16,218 bases of DNA from Thermoproteaceae archaeon (GCA_020833025.1 JAJHRB010000035.1:1-16218), one strand, 5' to 3'; counted from the stretch's first letter, positions 2,085 to 13,405 are shown. Made by a program: numbers and translations. Notes: generated by a model not told the origin, from the letters alone.

Positions 2085-2981
2085 GTGAGCATAGAGGGGC
2101 TTCTCGGGCGCATTAGGGTCGGGGACGGGCACCCCGTGAGGGTCGTTGCCGTCATAAACCTGTCCCCCGAGTCGTTCTACAGGGACTCGGTGCCCGAGAA
2201 CCCTGTCAGCAGGGCCCTTGAGCTGGAGAGGTGGTCTGACGTCATAGATGTGGGCGCCATGTCGACGGCGCCGTACCTTGAGTCGTGGGTGCCGCCCGAA
2301 AGGGAGCTCGAGAGGCTTAAGAGAGTCCTGCCCGAGATGGTCAAGAGCGTGAGAGTGCCCGTGAGCGTTGACACTTACAGGCCTGCAGTCGCCGAGTACG
2401 CCCTCAAGGCGGGCGCGGAAATCGTGAACGACGTAACTGGCGGCAAGCTGTATCCCGAGATGTGCCGCGTCGTTGCCGAGTACGGCGCGTCCGTGGTGCT
2501 CCTGGCTAGAGAGCGCGAGCCGAGGCGCGGTCTCGAGCCAACCGCTAGAGTGGTGCAGGCGCTGAGGGAGTCGGTGGAGCACTTTGAGAGGTGCGGGGTC
2601 GACCCCCGGAGGATAATTGCGGACCCGGGAATTGGCTTCCCGCTGCTGCCGCCGGGGGACCGGCCCTTCGTCATCAGGGGCGAGGACAGGCACGGCGATG
2701 AGAGCTGGCCGTGGTGGAAGTGGGACCTGCACGTCATAGCGAACCTAGCCAGGCTGCGGGAGCTGGGCAAGCCTATAATGGTGGGGGTCTCGCGGAAGTC
2801 ATTTCTCTGGAGGGTAACAGGCGCGGGGGGCCCGGAGGAAGTCCTGCCTGCGTCAGTTGCAGCCGAGGCAGCGGCCGTGCTCCACGGCGCGCACGCTGTG
2901 AGGACGCACAACCCGCGGGAGACCAGGCAGGCAGTTAGACTGGCCGAGGCTCTGTTGTTGTTCACGCAACCGCGCTGGTGA
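2085..2981 (+). CDS. folP: Dihydropteroate synthase (archaeal type pterin-binding TIM barrel)
   Basis: NLSPESFY, DVGAMSTAP, SVDTY, VNDVTG, DPGIGF, VGVSRKSF and RTHN motifs match the DHPS family. Confidence 0.85.
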   Translation: MSIEGLLGRIRVGDGHPVRVVAVINLSPESFYRDSVPENPVSRALELERWSDVIDVGAMSTAPYLESWVPPERELERLKRVLPEMVKSVRVPVSVDTYRPAVAEYALKAGAEIVNDVTGGKLYPEMCRVVAEYGASVVLLAREREPRRGLEPTARVVQALRESVEHFERCGVDPRRIIADPGIGFPLLPPGDRPFVIRGEDRHGDESWPWWKWDLHVIANLARLRELGKPIMVGVSRKSFLWRVTGAGGPEEVLPASVAAEAAAVLHGAHAVRTHNPRETRQAVRLAEALLLFTQPRW

Positions 2982-2984
2982 GGC

Positions 2985-3515
2985 TCAGGCTGCGCGCCGG
3001 GCCCTGACCCTCATCAGCGAGAAGTTGTCCGACTCGGCGAGAACGGATATGCCCGTCTTGCTTGGGAATAGCTCGAGCCACAGCAGCCTGTCAGGCTGCG
3101 TTAAGTTCACCTTTCTATTGATTGCCCTCGCTACGTAGTCTATGACTGAGACTCTGTCGTACTTAACGCCGCGCTTCCTCAGCTCTATTCTGTAGCTCTC
3201 GTCCGGTCTTATGTATCGCTCGGCGAGCTCGGAAGCGGCTCTCTGTATCTCGTCAAGGTCCGTCCTCACGACTGACATTATTGGCGTCACTCTAAGGACG
3301 TATCTGGGGATGTAATAATTGTTCACAATGACGTCGGTGAGCATTCTGACGAACTCCACGGGGTCTCCCTCCACTCTCGCTGTCAGCAGCCCGTCGAATC
3401 CCGTGAACCACACTCCCTCTACCCTCCTGCCTACGATATCCCCTACTCTGTACAGCTCCTCCATACATAGCCTTTCGTTGCGCCATCCTGTCGCCACGAC
3501 AAGGTTCCAGCTCAT
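2985..3515 (-). CDS. Stand-alone THUMP-domain RNA-binding protein (Tan1-like)
   Basis: ESYRIELRKRG...VNLTQPDRLLWLELF is the THUMP core. ATG at 3515 was chosen because TTTATTAA (3546-3539, minus strand) lies about 24 nt upstream. Confidence 0.8.
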   Translation of the reverse strand: MSWNLVVATGWRNERLCMEELYRVGDIVGRRVEGVWFTGFDGLLTARVEGDPVEFVRMLTDVIVNNYYIPRYVLRVTPIMSVVRTDLDEIQRAASELAERYIRPDESYRIELRKRGVKYDRVSVIDYVARAINRKVNLTQPDRLLWLELFPSKTGISVLAESDNFSLMRVRARRAA

Positions 3516-4018: not shown

Positions 4019-4401
4019 CGCCCTGCCCTCGACAGGAGCCTCGCGACCGCGTTGGCAAGAACGCCCGCCGCCTGCTCGGCGGCAGCAGGCCGCGCTAATT
4101 CAGGCCGGCCGAGACCCGCCCCCGGAAGTGCCTCTCTGCGTCTCGGAGCGCCGGAGGGCGGCCGGGGCTCTGTGCGCTGACGCCCTCTATTCACCGCCCA
4201 CGAGCGGCGAGTAACGGGCCTGACGTTCGTGCGTGCTGTGCAATCCGGAGCCCCGCTCACGGACGGCCGCAACGGCCGCCTCCGGGGCCGATCCTGCCGC
4301 CATTGCCTTGCAGCGCGGGTTAAAAAAAAAAAGCACCGGCGCGCTGCCAGCGCGCCGAGATGCGCAGTAAATAATTAATTCCCGCTCGCGCTAAGGCTCG
4401 C

Positions 4402-5248: not shown

Positions 5249-5791
5249 TCAACTCGCGCCCAGCCCCCGCTTGAGCACAAATTTAATGTACTCCCTGCCC
5301 CCCACGTTAGCTCCCCGCTTCACCGAGACCCTCAAAATATAGGGCTCCGGCGTCTCGACAGCGCCGCTGAAGTGCCAGTCGACTATCTGCGCGTTCTGCG
5401 GGAAGATCCAGACGGCCTCGTAGTCGTACTCTGCCGCCTCCTCCTCGTACACGTTCTCGTACACATTCTCGCCGTCTTTTAGCGGTGCGGGGAAGGAGCC
5501 CGTGAACACTATATAGGGCCTGGTGGGAGAGCCCCTGAGCCCTACGTAGACGTCGTGAATAAGCGGGCGCACTCTCTGTCCGTTAACTCTCACAACCTCC
5601 CCGTCCATGAATCTCTGCATGTTCTCCCACACCGTCGAGATCTCGCGGGAGAGTCTCTCACCGCCTTCCCGCAAGAGCCTATAGTAGTAACGCGCTCTGT
5701 CCGAGTAGTCAAATATTATGATCATGTTAACAACGCCGGGATTCACAACGTAAAAGCCCTGGGCGTAAACAGGCACAACCTCCTCGGTCAC
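5249..5791 (-). CDS. Conserved-looking hypothetical protein (about 180 aa)
   Basis: Protein-like 3' part of ORF 5249..6265 (VPVYAQGFYVV...ENVYEEEAAEYDYEAVWIFP). GTG at 5791 lies about 20-25 nt after a TTATTA element. The upstream part of that ORF overlaps dph5 and is not protein-like. Confidence 0.65.
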   Translation of the reverse strand: MTEEVVPVYAQGFYVVNPGVVNMIIIFDYSDRARYYYRLLREGGERLSREISTVWENMQRFMDGEVVRVNGQRVRPLIHDVYVGLRGSPTRPYIVFTGSFPAPLKDGENVYENVYEEEAAEYDYEAVWIFPQNAQIVDWHFSGAVETPEPYILRVSVKRGANVGGREYIKFVLKRGLGAS

Positions 5792-5826
5792 GCGCGAGCG
5801 GGCGCGGGCGGTAATAATCTGTGCGC

Positions 5827-6609
5827 CTAGCTGCCCGCCTCCCGGCCCCCCTGGCCCGACGCCACTGATGCTAGACACTCCCTCTCCACAGGGCCCAGCG
5901 AGGCAGGCACAATGATTACGGCCGGGCCCTCCACGTCGCACTTCAGCAACTCGCCAAGGGCCGCGCGCAGCACCGAGCCGCCCCAGCCGAGCCTGTAAAC
6001 CACGATCACCTCTCTCGTCTTGACGAACACGCCGCGCCTTGCCGCGCCCTCCAACTCCAGCAGCACCGCCGCGGCGTCTCTCGGCGGCATGTATGAGCCA
6101 TCGTCTCTGACGTCCAGGAGGAGCAGCGTGTGAAGCCCCCTCTTTAAGTTCATCTCCGCGAGCTCGTAAGGCCTCATCGAGTACACCCCGCCCCTGGGGT
6201 AGGTCACTGTGGCGACCCCTCCCAGCCTGTACACAGACAGGCAGCTCACGGAGAGGGCGGCGCACACTATAGAGACTCCTGGCACTATCTCAACGCTGTG
6301 GCCCCGCGACCTCACTAACGCTACCAGTGCTGCGTGAGAGGTTGCGAGGAGCGGGTCTCCTGCAGTCACCAGCGCCGCGCTCTTCCCTGCATTGAGGCAC
6401 TCAAGTATCTTGCGCCCCGACTCATCCTCTAGGTCTCGCCTTGTGAGCTTGAGCGGCTCTCTACCCGCGAGCTTGCGCAGCAGTTCGACGTGAGCGGGGC
6501 CCGTGTAGTCCTCGTAAAATAGACAGTCGGCCTCGCGCAGCACTCGCAGCGCCCTCTCAGTAACGTAGCCTGGCCCGGGGCCGATGCCGGCGAGGTAAAG
6601 TTTTGCCAT
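5827..6609 (-). CDS. dph5: Diphthine synthase (diphthamide methyltransferase)
   Basis: LYLAGIG, FYEDYT, LTRRDLED, AGDPLLATSH, PGVSI, NLKRGLHTLLLLDV motifs. Confidence 0.9.
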   Translation of the reverse strand: MAKLYLAGIGPGPGYVTERALRVLREADCLFYEDYTGPAHVELLRKLAGREPLKLTRRDLEDESGRKILECLNAGKSAALVTAGDPLLATSHAALVALVRSRGHSVEIVPGVSIVCAALSVSCLSVYRLGGVATVTYPRGGVYSMRPYELAEMNLKRGLHTLLLLDVRDDGSYMPPRDAAAVLLELEGAARRGVFVKTREVIVVYRLGWGGSVLRAALGELLKCDVEGPAVIIVPASLGPVERECLASVASGQGGREAGS

Positions 6610-7268: not shown

Positions 7269-7292
7269 GCGAGCTTCGACTCCCGGCTTTAA

Positions 7293-8066
7293 TTAGTCTT
7301 CCCAGAGGGCGAGAGCCTTGCCTGCAGTCTCGAGCGCCGCGGCGCGCGCCGCGAGACTTCTCGCCTTGGACAGGAAGTAGCGGTAGACAGATCTGAGCGC
7401 CGCGGCATCTACCTGAAAGGACACGCCGTCGTACTCTATGTTAAGCAGAACGAGCCCCTCGGCAGGCGCGCTGGGAACGGCGCCTGGCCTCGGATTCTCA
7501 AGCAACTCCTTGAGGTCCCCGAGCCGCAGCACTCCGCGGCCTGCCGCGAGAATGGCCCACGCGAGCTTCCGCAGCATTTTATTCCTGAACCCCCGCCCCA
7601 CAAATCGCATGATGACAAGACTGCCTGCGAGCTCGACGTCAATTCTGTAAATCGTCGTGACTGCAGGCACTCCCCTGCTGCCGCGCATCTTCGCGAACGA
7701 GGCGTAGTTATGCGTGCCTGTGAGGAGGCCGGCAGCCTCGCGCATGGCCTCCAAGTCCTCGCCCCAGTGCGGCGCGACGTAGAGGTACTCACGCGCCCTG
7801 GCGCGCCTCGGGTTGAAGCCGTCGGGCACGCTCGCGACAGCCCACACCCAGACTCCGCGCGGCAGTCTAGAGTTGATGTAGCCCACCGGCAGCACCCGGG
7901 AGGCCATGACAACGTTCGCCACCGCGGACACGCCTGGGTCCGTCCTGCTCCCCCTGCCGAGAATCTCGCCGAGAGCGCGCCTCAGCGCCCGCTCCACCGA
8001 GTTTTGATGGCCCGTGAATCCGTGAAAGAGCGCGCCGTCATACGCAACCCTGTAAAGGTAGGGCAT
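7293..8066 (-). CDS. truA: tRNA pseudouridine(38-40) synthase
   Basis: YRVAYDGALFHGF, catalytic RTDPGVSA, FNPR, GTHNYASF, GFRNKMLRKL, APAEGLVL. ATG at 8066 with TTAATATAA (8097-8089) upstream. Confidence 0.9.
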   Translation of the reverse strand: MPYLYRVAYDGALFHGFTGHQNSVERALRRALGEILGRGSRTDPGVSAVANVVMASRVLPVGYINSRLPRGVWVWAVASVPDGFNPRRARAREYLYVAPHWGEDLEAMREAAGLLTGTHNYASFAKMRGSRGVPAVTTIYRIDVELAGSLVIMRFVGRGFRNKMLRKLAWAILAAGRGVLRLGDLKELLENPRPGAVPSAPAEGLVLLNIEYDGVSFQVDAAALRSVYRYFLSKARSLAARAAALETAGKALALWED

Positions 8067-10020: not shown

Positions 10021-10410
10021 GTGCGCTGCTCTGGGCACTTGTGCGTCCGCGTGGAGATAGTGAGGGATCCCGTCGAGAGGGTTGAAAGCAGCGATGAGGT
10101 CACAGTAATTTGCGTCAAGCCCGAGGCCGTCTCGAGCTGGCTCGAGCTCGCCCAGGCGCTGTACTATGCATATCACTGGCGCGGGCCTGCGAGGAATCCT
10201 GCCGTGTCTGCGCTAATGTACCTCGCGCAAAACGACCAGATAAGAGAGGCAGTGAAGGTCTCGGCAGTTGGCGGCGCGGAGGCGATATGCGCAGCGCTAG
10301 GCCCGCGCGAGGCGCTGGCTGCAAGAAAGCCGCTGGGCGAGCCGTACCTCCCCGAGGGTCGCTGGGATCCGTGGAAGGTCACCAGATTTGCCCTGGATCT
10401 GGTCGCGTAG
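10021..10410 (+). CDS. Probable KEOPS complex subunit Cgi121-like protein (short, divergent)
   Basis: ALYYAY..GPARNPAVSALMYLAQNDQIREAVK resembles the Cgi121 'N.a.n...e.llyla...QI..Ai' core; T-rich TATA-like element at about 9994-10000. Confidence 0.5.
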   Translation: MRCSGHLCVRVEIVRDPVERVESSDEVTVICVKPEAVSSWLELAQALYYAYHWRGPARNPAVSALMYLAQNDQIREAVKVSAVGGAEAICAALGPREALAARKPLGEPYLPEGRWDPWKVTRFALDLVA

Positions 10411-10429
10411 CCGCGCGCCGGAGGAATGC

Positions 10430-10436
10430 TTAAATA
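10430..10436 (+). promoter_or_regulatory. TATA box (TTAAATA) upstream of the tRNA 5'-half
   Basis: About 30 nt before 10465, with purine-rich GAGGAA upstream; no ORF starts downstream. Confidence 0.65.
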
Positions 10437-10464
10437 ATTGCGCGGCAAATCCTCGCGACCGCGA

Positions 10465-10514
10465 GGGCCCGTAGCTTAGCCCGGTAGAGCGCCCAGGGGC
10501 GATTCCCGCGCAGG
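10465..10514 (+). tRNA. tRNA 5' fragment (positions 1-30, Ile-like) with a 19-nt intron at 29/30 (10495-10513); anticodon and 3' half absent
   Basis: GGGCCCG TA GCTT AGCCCGGTA GAGC G CCC gives acceptor 5' strand plus complete D-arm. BHB: G24-C27 (GCGC, 10489-92) pairs with GCGC 10508-11; bulges CC|A and AG|G; intron stem GGG/CCC. No T-arm or CGGGCCC was seen downstream. Confidence 0.75.
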
Positions 10515-10705
10515 TGTCGGCGGCGGCCGGCTTTCCCCTCCTCTCACCCAGCGCAAAGTTCAGCTCGCCGGCCAGCCAAGCCGCCCGCGGCGCGTGCCGA
10601 CAGTAGCATGCATGTTGCCTGGCGGCACCAATCCCTGAGGGCTAGAGACTCCAAGCTCCTGCACGCGAGATCGCGGCTGCCACCATGGAGTCTACAGAGA
10701 GCGAC

Positions 10706-10812
10706 TGGTGCGGGGGGTGGGATTTGAACCCACGCAGGCCTACGCCACAGGGTCTTGTGGGCCGGCTAATGCCGAAAGCCCTGCCCCTTTGACCTGGCTC
10801 GGGCACCCCCGC
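10706..10812 (-). tRNA. tRNA-Leu(UAA) with a 19-nt intron at 34/35 (10775-10757) and encoded CCA
   Basis: GCGGGGG/CCCCCGC acceptor stem, CAGGG/CCCTG anticodon stem, long variable arm, GTGGG-TTCAAAT-CCCAC T-arm, ACCA end. BHB geometry (helix GGGC/GCCC, bulges TT|T and AC|A) yields loop CU-UAA-GA. Confidence 0.9.
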
Positions 10813-10842: not shown

Positions 10843-10859
10843 GCCTTTACTCGCTCGAC

Positions 10860-10909
10860 GGCACAAGAGGGCACTGCCCCTCCCCAAAGGGACAGGGCCC
10901 TCTTGTGCC
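10860..10909. repeat. Perfect 13-bp inverted repeat forming a 50-nt hairpin
   Basis: GGCACAAGAGGGC (10860-72) / GCCCTCTTGTGCC (10897-909), with a further imperfect inner stem. Confidence 0.85.
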
Positions 10910-11283: not shown

Positions 11284-11517
11284 GTGGCTGAGGAGGTTAA
11301 GCTCTCGCCTTACGAGGACGCCGTGGCGGCACTAGTTGTGCAGATACTCGGCAGAACTGGCATCGCCGGCGAGGTGACGCAGGTCAAGGTAAAGGTGCTT
11401 GAGGGGCGCGACAAAGGACGCATCTTAACGAGAAACGTAAAGGGACCTGTCAGAGTTGGCGACATACTGATGCTCAGAGAGACTGAGAGAGAGGCGAGGA
11501 AGCTCGCGGCGCGATGA
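11284..11517 (+). CDS. rps28e: 30S ribosomal protein S28e
   Basis: [53 protein letters not shown]; TTAAATA at 11256-62. Confidence 0.97.
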
Positions 11518-12286: not shown

Positions 12287-13405
12287 CTATTTAAATTTAA
12301 GCCCTTTGCGCGCTCTTTCTAGAGTCTCGCGCGGTAGAGTTCTCGCGGGTTTCTCGCCGACTAGCCCCTGGGGCCTAAATATCAAAATTAATATAATTGC
12401 AATGCCGAACACCATGTACTGGAAGTAGACAGGGTCTATTTTCGCGCCAGTTGCTGCAACAATTGCCCCCACTATGCTCTCCTTAAACACCGTTAAGAGG
12501 CGGTCTGTGGCGATGTAAATAGCGACGCCCAGCAGCGCGCCCGCGTTATTGCCCATCCCGCCGACGACGAGCATGGCCCACGCGATAAACGTCAAGACTG
12601 GTGTGAATTGTCCCATGTTGGTGTAGTACATGTAGAATGCGAGGAGGGCGCCGGCAATACCGCTTAACGCCGACGCCACGACAAACACGCAGGCCCTGAA
12701 CCTCGCCGCGTCCTTCCCGAAGGCAGCCGCGGCTGTCTCGGCATCCCTAATGGCTCTCAGCGCGCGGCCGAACGGGGAGTTGCAGAGCCGCTCGAGCACG
12801 ATAAAGGCGAGGAGCAGGAATGCAAGCAGAACGGCCAGATAGCCCCACGGCCTGCCATCTCCCATCCACGCGAAGGGATCTGGGACCACCCTCCCGTATA
12901 CACCGCACGCGAGCTGCGGCGTGTACACAGTAACAACCCTGACAATCTCAGCGCTCACGAGCAGAAGTATGCCGAGGTAGTCCTCCCGCAGTCTTATTGC
13001 AGGCCACGCTGCGAGAAGCCCGAACGCCCCTGCCAGCACCGCAGCCAGCACGACCGACCCGGCGAAGAACGCCAGGCCCTCGGGCAGCGAGCTCTTAAAT
13101 GCCTCGTTTATCACTGCAACGGCCTGGTACTGGTACGCCCTGCAGTACTCCATCGCATCTGCCACCGGGCTGAAGCCCAGTCTCGCCGCTATCACGCCCT
13201 CGTAGGCGAGCATGGCGGTCCACGTCGTAATGCCGCCGACGGCAAAGCCCCCCAGCGCTAGGAACATCACCTTGCCGAACTGCGGGAGGCCCAGGTAACC
13301 CGCTTCGAGGTTCAGGCTCAGCACGTAAATTCCGTAAATTGCGAGAAACGCGAGAGTCTCCCTCAGCAGCACAATAACGAGGCCGGGGTCTAGCTGCAGC
13401 TGCAT
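12287..13405 (-). CDS. livM: Branched-chain amino acid ABC transporter permease (LivM type)
   Basis: LSLNLEAGYLGLPQFG, LREDYLGI, SPFGRALRAIRDAETAAAAFGK, VVGGMGN motifs; ATG 13405 follows the livH stop. Confidence 0.85.
   Translation of the reverse strand: MQLQLDPGLVIVLLRETLAFLAIYGIYVLSLNLEAGYLGLPQFGKVMFLALGGFAVGGITTWTAMLAYEGVIAARLGFSPVADAMEYCRAYQYQAVAVINEAFKSSLPEGLAFFAGSVVLAAVLAGAFGLLAAWPAIRLREDYLGILLLVSAEIVRVVTVYTPQLACGVYGRVVPDPFAWMGDGRPWGYLAVLLAFLLLAFIVLERLCNSPFGRALRAIRDAETAAAAFGKDAARFRACVFVVASALSGIAGALLAFYMYYTNMGQFTPVLTFIAWAMLVVGGMGNNAGALLGVAIYIATDRLLTVFKESIVGAIVAATGAKIDPVYFQYMVFGIAIILILIFRPQGLVGEKPARTLPRETLERARKGLKFK

Follow-up and report, generated by a model that had tools for sequence, protein, structure and literature searches.

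A candidate split tRNA-Ile2(CAU) in an uncultured Pyrobaculum, with a predicted exon of one nucleotide separating a cis intron from a trans-splice site

A tRNA gene that stops inside its anticodon stem raises the question of where, if anywhere, the rest of the molecule is encoded. We met this question in a 16,218-nucleotide stretch of DNA from a Thermoproteaceae archaeon (GCA_020833025.1 JAJHRB010000035.1:1-16218; hereafter the window), which is contig C100 of a metagenome-assembled genome (MAG; G000). On its plus strand, between 10430 and 10530, a TATA box, tRNA positions 1-29, a 19-nt intron with bulge-helix-bulge (BHB) geometry at 29/30, a lone G30 and a GC-rich trailer follow one another. 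All of these had been pointed out in an earlier reading of the sequence alone, and all can be read directly. ARAGORN and the Rfam tRNA models, run over the whole window, leave the fragment uncalled; their sole call is a tRNA at 10709-10812 on the minus strand. Here we present evidence that 10430-10530 is very probably one half-gene, the 5′ one, of a split tRNA-Ile2(CAU) in an uncultured Pyrobaculum, transcribed on its own.

The 5′ half starts like the other tRNA genes of this genome. Its TATA box begins about 35-36 nt 5′ of G1 (10465), and a 5′ leader of ~7-11 nt is predicted, to be removed by RNase P. A motif of the (A)AAGCTTAAAWA type lies 28-36 nt 5′ of all 14 tRNA genes and 5′ halves checked, and the AT-rich promoter motif YTTAWAWW, present at that distance from each tRNA and tRNA piece looked at, is rare in this genome of 62.6% GC (0.15 per kb genome-wide). 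The copy at the 5′ half is presumably an active promoter. Exon 1 is identical or nearly identical to intact tRNA(CAU) genes of relatives. The cis intron behind it folds on paper into a relaxed BHB: the central helix pairs G24-C27 (10489-92) with GCGC (10508-11), the 5′ bulge is C28-C29-A (10493-95) with the cut at 10494/10495, the 3′ bulge is A-G-G30 (10512-14) with the cut at 10513/10514, and the inner hairpin GGGG/UCCC joins 10496-99 to 10504-07 around a loop at 10500-03. An intron is present at exactly the same site in the orthologous tRNA(CAU) of at least 15 relatives, always with an ending of GCG(C/U) plus A-N-G and with lengths of 19 to 44 nt among genomes. The shared position and ending thus mark the intron as homologous and not a chance resemblance. 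The relatives all read ...CCC[intron]GG-CUCAUAA-CCGGG, that is, G30 and G31 are both kept; if G30 were missing, 4 pairs would remain in the anticodon stem and the loop would grow to 8 nt. Behind the trailer, a pyrimidine-rich tail that diverges freely among strains is probably the transcript end of the 5′ half.

Where is the remainder of the molecule? The sequence-only reading had reported neither a T-arm nor a CGGGCCC acceptor partner in the window. As worded, this held in part: the heptamer does occur there, 9 times on both strands against 5.8 expected by chance, and no copy lies beside a T-arm. The same reading had forecast a remote 3′ half with roughly GCCGCCGAC-GGCG-NN in front of it. A genome-wide scan for T-arm and acceptor 3′ strands turned up exactly one such piece, on the minus strand of contig C13 (~7246-7130), which reads GCCGCCUGC-GGCG-UG. 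Several pieces of the genome end in CGGGCCC-N-CCA, and the C13 piece is the sole orphan 3′ piece with the anticodon CAU. It has no 5′ acceptor strand and no D-arm. The promoter motif CTTAAATA, also present at the 5′ half, starts 32 nt 5′ of its leader helix. A weak pseudo-anticodon stem that had been sketched after G30 was superseded by the real anticodon arm on C13. The pattern GGCGNNGCTCATAACCGGG has one occurrence in this genome and none in 119 other genomes of the class, and neither the trailer nor the leader was found in 40 relatives or in the 119 other genomes. A metagenome scan with GGCGNNGCTCATAACCGGG gave no copy of the split 3′ half among the matches listed; the pattern is too loose and matched unrelated tRNAs.

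The two pieces carry matching GC-rich strands. Window positions 10516-10530 face C13(-) 7215-7201 over 15 positions: 13 form Watson-Crick pairs, one is a G-U pair and one a C.U mismatch. Among 3.1 million positions there are 9 copies of the reverse complement of the 12-mer core; setting aside the copy on the opposite strand of the window itself, the sole one within a tRNA piece is that on C13. The cognate trailer/leader duplex has an energy of -41.2 kcal/mol, and five non-cognate leaders give -23 to -31; of 1000 shuffled leaders, 6 attain the cognate energy. Two further BLAST matches of the trailer, at C20:673 and C72:773, were set aside as paralogous coding sequence, not tRNA pieces.

With the cis intron removed, a second BHB can be drawn in trans at 30/31. 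Its central helix joins C25-C28 to the leader GGCG, its bulges are C29-G30-U10515 and U-G-G31, and its cuts fall after G30 and before G31. It is of the relaxed HBh′ type, with the trailer/leader duplex as the second helix, and crenarchaeal endonucleases accept the HBh′ form (PMC4090602). The two BHBs lie on overlapping strands, 24-27 in cis and 25-28 in trans, and the trans structure also needs C29 joined to G30, so that cis-splicing should precede trans-splicing. A split tRNA processed first in cis at 29/30 and then in trans at 30/31 is what had been proposed from the 5′ piece; with the partner found, the halves fit. Minimum-free-energy co-folding returned neither a cloverleaf nor a BHB because it pairs the D-loop CCCGG with CCGGG, and the BHBs were therefore drawn by hand.

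In silico, we removed the T-loop intron from the 3′ half, joined the remainder to exon 1 and G30, and obtained a 77-nt tRNA(cat) that ARAGORN accepts, a perfect cloverleaf with stems of 7/4/5/5 bp. The joined tRNA is ~95% identical (by eye) to the spliced tRNA-Ile(GAU) of the same genome (C72:22445-22590), from which it differs in one D-loop base, the first base of the anticodon and two variable-loop bases. Orthologues of it, tRNA(CAU) of the GGGCCCG type, are present in at least 15 related genomes. The other CAU tRNAs are initiator tRNA-Met (A1-U72; C35, C54) and elongator tRNA-Met (GCGGCGG acceptor; C89); no further CAU tRNA, no tRNA-Ile(UAU) and no other Ile2-type gene was found in the 94%-complete assembly. 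AUA is the commonest Ile codon of the genome, with 43% of Ile codons, and a TiaS_FLD domain is encoded at C44:4318-4644. With an Ile-like body, a CAU anticodon, TiaS, AUA as the commonest Ile codon and no other reader of AUA in the assembly, the joined molecule is by its features tRNA-Ile2(CAU), which would read AUA after agmatidine modification and should be indispensable. The tRNA-Ile identity guessed from the 5′ segment thus held up, and the search for an intact Ile gene that had been suggested along with it returned tRNA-Ile(GAU) on C72 and no other CAU tRNA of this type.

The host is a 1.56-Mb MAG assembled from hot-spring metagenomes. Its AtpB shares 86% identity with the AtpB of Pyrobaculum oguniense TE7, and a genome search places it in the same genus as 17 other species. 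Table 1 lists the features of both halves, together with those of the other putative split tRNAs described below.

Table 1. Coordinates of the two halves of the candidate split tRNA-Ile2 and of other tRNA pieces in the genome
Feature	Contig	Position	Strand	Remarks
5′-half promoter	window	10424..10437	+	purine-rich stretch resembling a transcription factor B recognition element (BRE), and TATA box TTAAATAA (10430-10437); predicted from sequence
Exon 1, tRNA positions 1-29	window	10465..10494	+	GGGCCCG, U8 A9, D-arm GCUU/AGCCCGGUA/GAGC, G26, C27-C29
Cis intron 29/30	window	10495..10513	+	19 nt, AGGGGCGATTCCCGCGCAG; relaxed BHB (HBh′) geometry read from sequence
Exon 2, single nucleotide G30	window	10514..10514	+	between cis intron and trans-splice site; G30-C40 anticodon-stem pair
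Trailer	window	10515..10530	+	TGTCGGCGGCGGCCGGC; GC-rich; U10515 = third base of 5′ trans bulge; 10516-10530 = GUCGGCGGCGGCCGG
Pyrimidine-rich tail	window	10531..10545	+	CTTTCCCCTCCTCTC; after trailer; C/T-rich stretches resemble those after other 5′ halves
3′-half TATA box	C13	7246-7239	-	TTAAATAG; predicted from sequence
3′-half leader strand	C13	7215-7201	-	CCGGCCGCCGCC-UGC; complementary to trailer
Leader GGCG	C13	7200-7197	-	central-helix strand of trans BHB
Leader UG	C13	7196-7195	-	bulge before G31
G31	C13	7194	-	first base of exon 3
Exon 3, positions 31-56	C13	7194-7169	-	G31, CUCAUAA, CCGGG UGGAC CCGGG UUC
T-loop cis intron 56/57	C13	7168-7150	-	19 nt; read from sequence
Exon 4, positions 57-76 including CCA	C13	7149-7130	-	AAAU CCCGG CGGGCCC A CCA; TTTT after it
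Lys(UUU) halves	C81	627; 465	+; -	divergent, ~150 bp apart
Lys(CUU) halves	C31	372; 85	-; -	tandem, ~230 nt apart
Arg(UCU) halves	C89; C13	28993; 7290-7391	-; +	split 30/31
Trp(CCA) halves	C46; C28	7391; 19331-19250	-; -	split 30/31
Asn(GUU) halves	C20; C74	13302; 5760-5845	-; +	split 30/31
Leu 5′ pieces (positions 1-21)	C89; C89	44350; 55050	+; -	trailers match Leu leaders
Leu 3′ pieces	C89; C89; C102; C34	~48505-48568; ~53558-53495; ~3171-3234; ~22720-22790	+; -; +; +	
Thr(GGU) halves	C74; C74	17519; ~17740-17832	+; +	~290 nt apart
Other Thr 5′ piece	C34	9003	+	
Other Thr 3′ pieces	C88; C91	~12860-12962; ~16910-17014	+; +	

We asked whether the arrangement recurs outside this MAG. A contig from another study (X2) shows 0 differences; X2 and a contig from another sample (X3) bridge 10300-10733 or further, and a contig from a third study (X6), belonging to a 93%-identical strain, bridges 10300-10707. 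Both halves are also present in JGI 3300045887, 3300045883, 3300045908 and 3300042965 and in Logan SRR25522540, recovered via reverse gyrase and ORF-B, an open reading frame (ORF) that precedes the 5′ half. This recurrence in independent assemblies shows that the split is not an assembly artefact. In a diverged strain, represented by two contigs of the same sample (L280 and L269), the flanks differ by ~10-14%, while exon 1, G30, the 12-bp helix core, the whole 3′ half and the leader from ~30 nt before G31 are unchanged. Exon 1 has zero substitutions in L280 and X6. Only four changes fall within 10465-10530 in the diverged strain: two (10502 and 10503) lie in the loop of the intron hairpin, one (10517) turns U.G into C-G, and one (10518) turns the C.U mismatch into U.U. 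This pattern is as selection on structure predicts and speaks for purifying selection on trailer and leader. No compensatory double change was seen, the sole diverged strain keeping the leader and its two trailer changes being one-sided.

From this anatomy and the established archaeal BHB, EndA and RtcB mechanism, we infer a pathway in which two transcripts and four exons (Table 1) give one mature tRNA. Each half would be driven by its own TATA promoter. The splicing endonuclease would excise the 19-nt 29/30 intron by way of G24-C27:GCGC, and RtcB would seal C29 to G30. The trailer (10516-10530) would anneal to the leader of the 3′ half, and the second relaxed BHB, C25-C28 with the leader GGCG, would now be possible. 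The endonuclease would cut after G30 and before G31, with ligation by RtcB. The T-loop intron at 56/57 would be excised independently, the 5′ leader trimmed by RNase P and C34 modified by TiaS. RtcB is encoded at C60:4614-7331 (+). Its gene is a single 961-aa open frame in which the Pfam match falls into two blocks (2-55 and 46-426) ~1.4 kb apart, which suggests that it carries an intein.

Several points weigh against this pathway and against the split tRNA-Ile2 itself. The MAG is incomplete, and an intact second Ile2 copy could sit in the unassembled part. The promoters and transcript ends are predicted from motifs only. The trans BHB lacks an outer helix, and its long helix contains one C.U mismatch and one G-U pair; the order of cis before trans is deduced from the two drawn structures. 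The EndA search, which found a catalytic domain at C61:40360-40611, covered only the catalytic subunit of the (alpha-beta)2 enzyme. For transcription, cis-splicing and joining, we turned to a metatranscriptome (X19), which has zero depth over 10510-10530 and says nothing either way on expression. One X19 contig continues with GGCTCATAA after 10494; its T-arm and its upstream sequence both differ from those here, and it was assigned to another organism.

The incomplete assembly leaves some room for the idea that both pieces are dead remnants of a rearrangement, the working Ile2 copy, or a tRNA-Ile(UAU), lying in the ~6% of the genome that is unassembled. The MAG is 93.9% complete and in 126 contigs, tRNA genes are often at contig ends, two metagenome contigs (L279 and L281) break inside this very gene, and X19 gave no RNA support. 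Against this, both pieces keep tRNA-type promoters, and the 15 complementary positions of trailer and leader are placed exactly for a BHB at 30/31. Exons, helix core and leader are unchanged in a strain whose flanks diverged by 10-14%; the gene is single-copy at the syntenic locus in relatives, and the same design is common to at least 12 other tRNAs of the genome. We therefore consider that the pieces are improbable remnants and that a split tRNA-Ile2 accounts for them far better.

The 5′ fragment could also have been a duplicated attachment site that an integrated virus or plasmid left behind, and such duplicates do exist in this genome, for tRNA-Ser(GCU) on C12 and tRNA-Ser(CGA) on C17. A duplicate would repeat part of an intact gene, and here none was found: the pieces abut without overlap (G30/G31), and no other match longer than ~30 nt to 10430-10540 occurs in the genome. 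The neighbours are housekeeping genes (atpB, tRNA-Leu, S28e, L24e, L7Ae, an ABC transporter and reverse gyrase), with no integrase among those scanned. The sequence-only reading had kept open an attachment-site relic or a decayed tRNA gene; halves that do not overlap, that fit together, that have promoters of their own and that are conserved in a diverged strain speak against both, and we regard an attachment-site origin as very improbable. As for the Ser genes themselves, the 3′ part of tRNA-Ser(GCU) is duplicated ~10.8 kb from the intact gene (C12:492-579 versus C12:~11340-11399) and that of tRNA-Ser(CGA) ~10.4 kb from it (C17:10494-10581 versus C17:~60-143), to all appearance the signature of integrated elements with tRNA attachment sites.

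That C100 and C13 are adjacent and the two halves form one gene with a giant cis intron, or that the locus is mis-assembled, is hardly credible: the contigs are unjoined, but C100 runs on for at least 5.7 kb past the 5′ half and C13 has 4 kb ahead of the 3′ half, with opposite-strand genes (tRNA-Leu, L7Ae, permeases) in these stretches. A TATA box belonging to the 3′ half starts 32 nt 5′ of the leader helix, both junctions are reproduced in independent assemblies, and 1.2 Mb separate the flanking blocks in P. neutrophilum. A circularly permuted gene of the Thermofilum type was likewise rejected, the upstream region being ORF-B and a TATA box and the plus strand of the window holding no T-arm.

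How did tRNA-Ile2 come to be split? In P. neutrophilum (G016, the relative identified through a reverse gyrase search) the order is atpB, ORF-B, an intact tRNA-Ile2, a 185-aa ORF, reverse gyrase and a 943-aa gene. In the MAG, C100 carries atpB, ORF-B and the 5′ half, and C13 the 3′ half, reverse gyrase and the 943-aa gene. ORF-B also precedes the intact gene in P. oguniense, with atpB upstream, and in two other Pyrobaculum genomes. After the 5′ half, the MAG continues with tRNA-Leu, S28e, L24e, L7Ae and an ABC transporter, and the permease of this downstream block is 1.2 Mb from the tRNA locus in P. neutrophilum. The ancestral flanks are thus divided between the two contigs and the downstream block is a distant one in P. 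neutrophilum, which places a rearrangement breakpoint inside the gene.

An intron at the future break point is still visible in cis in a sister gene. The elongator tRNA-Met (C89:48692-48840, plus strand) reads GAGCACCC, a 20-nt intron, G, a 36-nt intron ending in ...GGUG-CG, and GCUCAUAA. It has three cis introns, at 29/30 (20 nt), at 30/31 (36 nt, helix CACC:GGUG) and in the T-loop at 56/57, and its G30 is a one-nucleotide exon in cis. The tRNA-Met of relatives has the 29/30 intron only, without that at 30/31. Introns at 30/31 also occur in tRNA-Arg(GCG) and tRNA-Arg(UCG) of this genome. Moreover, three metagenome contigs from another crenarchaeote (L031:~2700-2840(+), L060(-) and L110(-)) encode a tRNA(CAU) with a GGGCCCG acceptor and a cis 30/31 intron (…GCGCCCG/ACGCGUGGAGCGGGCGAG/GCUCAUAA) that uses the same CGCC:GGCG central helix. 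Intron gain followed by breakage is the likely path: an intact gene with a 29/30 intron would have stood between atpB plus the small ORF and the reverse gyrase region, would have gained a 30/31 intron such as tRNA-Met still has in cis, and would have been broken by a chromosomal event within that intron, the promoter of the 3′ half having arisen or been recruited.

tRNA-Ile2 does not stand alone. Six tRNAs of the genome are split at 30/31, namely Ile2, Lys(UUU), Lys(CUU), Arg(UCU), Trp(CCA) and Asn(GUU), and each half has its own TATA box. Among these six the cognate duplex is always the best (-40 to -52 kcal/mol, versus -23 to -37 for non-cognate pairs). The 3′ halves of tRNA-Ile2 and tRNA-Arg(UCU) lie back to back at C13:7236-7289, their TATA boxes ~30 nt apart on opposite strands; in L269 the Arg(UCU) leader has several substitutions and the Ile2 leader none. 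tRNA-Leu(UAG, CAG, GAG and CAA) exist only as promoter-bearing 3′ pieces starting near position 22, and two 5′ pieces appear to be common to the four, as in the 'jigsaw' tRNAs of Caldivirga; the only intact tRNA-Leu is tRNA-Leu(UAA), in the window. For tRNA-Thr(GGU), Thr(UGU) and Thr(CGU) the split is at 29/30, the cis-intron position of tRNA-Ile2, and the Thr 5′ piece on C34 may serve both the Thr(UGU) and the Thr(CGU) 3′ halves. Two Gln 3′ pieces (C89:+474 and C19:-703) look like genes with a 3/4 intron rather than split ones, and were left out of the tally. By sequence, the genome appears to make ~13 trans-spliced tRNAs from 23 promoter-bearing pieces.

We think it fairly likely that this Pyrobaculum lineage recently fragmented about a third of its tRNA genes, ~13 tRNAs in 23 pieces, with the Leu genes cut near 21/22, 5′ pieces shared among isoacceptors (two for Leu, at least one for Thr), and Ile2 processed in an obligatory order, cis and then trans, around its single-nucleotide exon. 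If this is true, the set is twice the largest known, in a genus reported to have none, and tRNA-Ile2 is the pathway caught in the act. The largest reported sets number six, in N. equitans as well as C. maquilingensis, and no split tRNA was found in five Pyrobaculum genomes (Chan, Cozen & Lowe 2011, PMC3218864).

The class to which tRNA-Ile2 would belong is well known. The split tRNA-Lys(CUU) of Nanoarchaeum equitans, Staphylothermus marinus and S. hellenicus (Randau et al. 2005; PMC3218864) likewise has a GC-rich trailer and leader and is likewise joined at 30/31 through a relaxed BHB cut by the splicing endonuclease. Here, in contrast, the isoacceptor is Ile2(CAU), the genus is Pyrobaculum, a cis intron precedes the trans-splice site by one nucleotide, and there is an extra intron in the 3′ half. 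Caldivirga maquilingensis (Fujishima et al. 2009; PMC4033280, PMC4090602) is, like the present host, a free-living member of the Thermoproteales in which isoacceptors share pieces. It has non-canonical split sites, for example 29/30 for tRNA-Ala, and its sites coincide with introns of relatives, as here. Its six split tRNAs come from ten pieces, versus ~13 from 23 here, and its tri-split tRNAs are made from three transcripts, whereas tRNA-Ile2 would be made from two, with four exons and one cis intron per half.

The tRNA-Asp(GUC) of Aeropyrum pernix and Thermosphaera aggregans (PMC3218864) has likewise been read as a recent split of an intron-containing gene, with intact orthologues in relatives. 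Its halves are adjacent and joined at 37/38, whereas those of tRNA-Ile2 are on different contigs with unrelated neighbours and keep the ancestral synteny of both flanks. Multi-intron tRNA genes are known in Pyrobaculum and in further Thermoproteales (Sugahara et al. 2008; Fujishima et al. 2010, both cited in PMC4033280), and the 29/30 and 56/57 introns of Ile2 are ordinary members of that class; unlike those, its 30/31 intervening sequence is no longer continuous DNA. In the literature searched, whose coverage is incomplete, we found no split tRNA-Ile2, no split Pyrobaculum tRNAs and no one-nucleotide tRNA exon. Within that literature, split tRNAs and the 30/31 site are familiar; what appears to be new is the isoacceptor and the genus, together with an exon of one nucleotide that separates a cis intron from a trans-splice site, the two BHBs being mutually exclusive.

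These findings bear on the long debate whether tRNA halves descend from an ancestral two-piece tRNA or arose late, by accident, from intron-containing genes. One genus here offers an unusually complete 'late' series: intact orthologues with the 29/30 intron in the other Pyrobaculum species looked at, a tRNA-Met with the 30/31 intron in cis, a broken Ile2 with both neighbourhoods kept, and strain variants. Standard tRNA finders miss the tRNA for the most-used Ile codon; because they do not see split tRNAs, such MAGs look short of tRNAs. The one-nucleotide exon is also a clean test of whether EndA and RtcB process overlapping, mutually exclusive BHBs in a fixed order.

Two other features of the window deserve mention. 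The tRNA called at 10709-10812 on the minus strand, 180 nt 3′ of the 5′ half and on the opposite strand, reads as an intact tRNA-Leu(UAA) with a ~20-nt anticodon-loop intron and an encoded CCA; Rfam scores it at 45.8 bits, and ARAGORN miscalls it as Glu. Just upstream of its promoter, at 10858-10909, lies a 52-nt near-perfect GC-rich hairpin (GGCACAAGAGGGC...GCCCTCTTGTGCC), whose sole matches were weak chance ones to miRNA models and which could be a terminator or a small RNA. Further away, at 4233-4298 on the minus strand, the window encodes a match to Pyrobaculum H/ACA-like small RNA (sRNA) 209 (RF02807), with 56.9 bits against a gathering score of 42.

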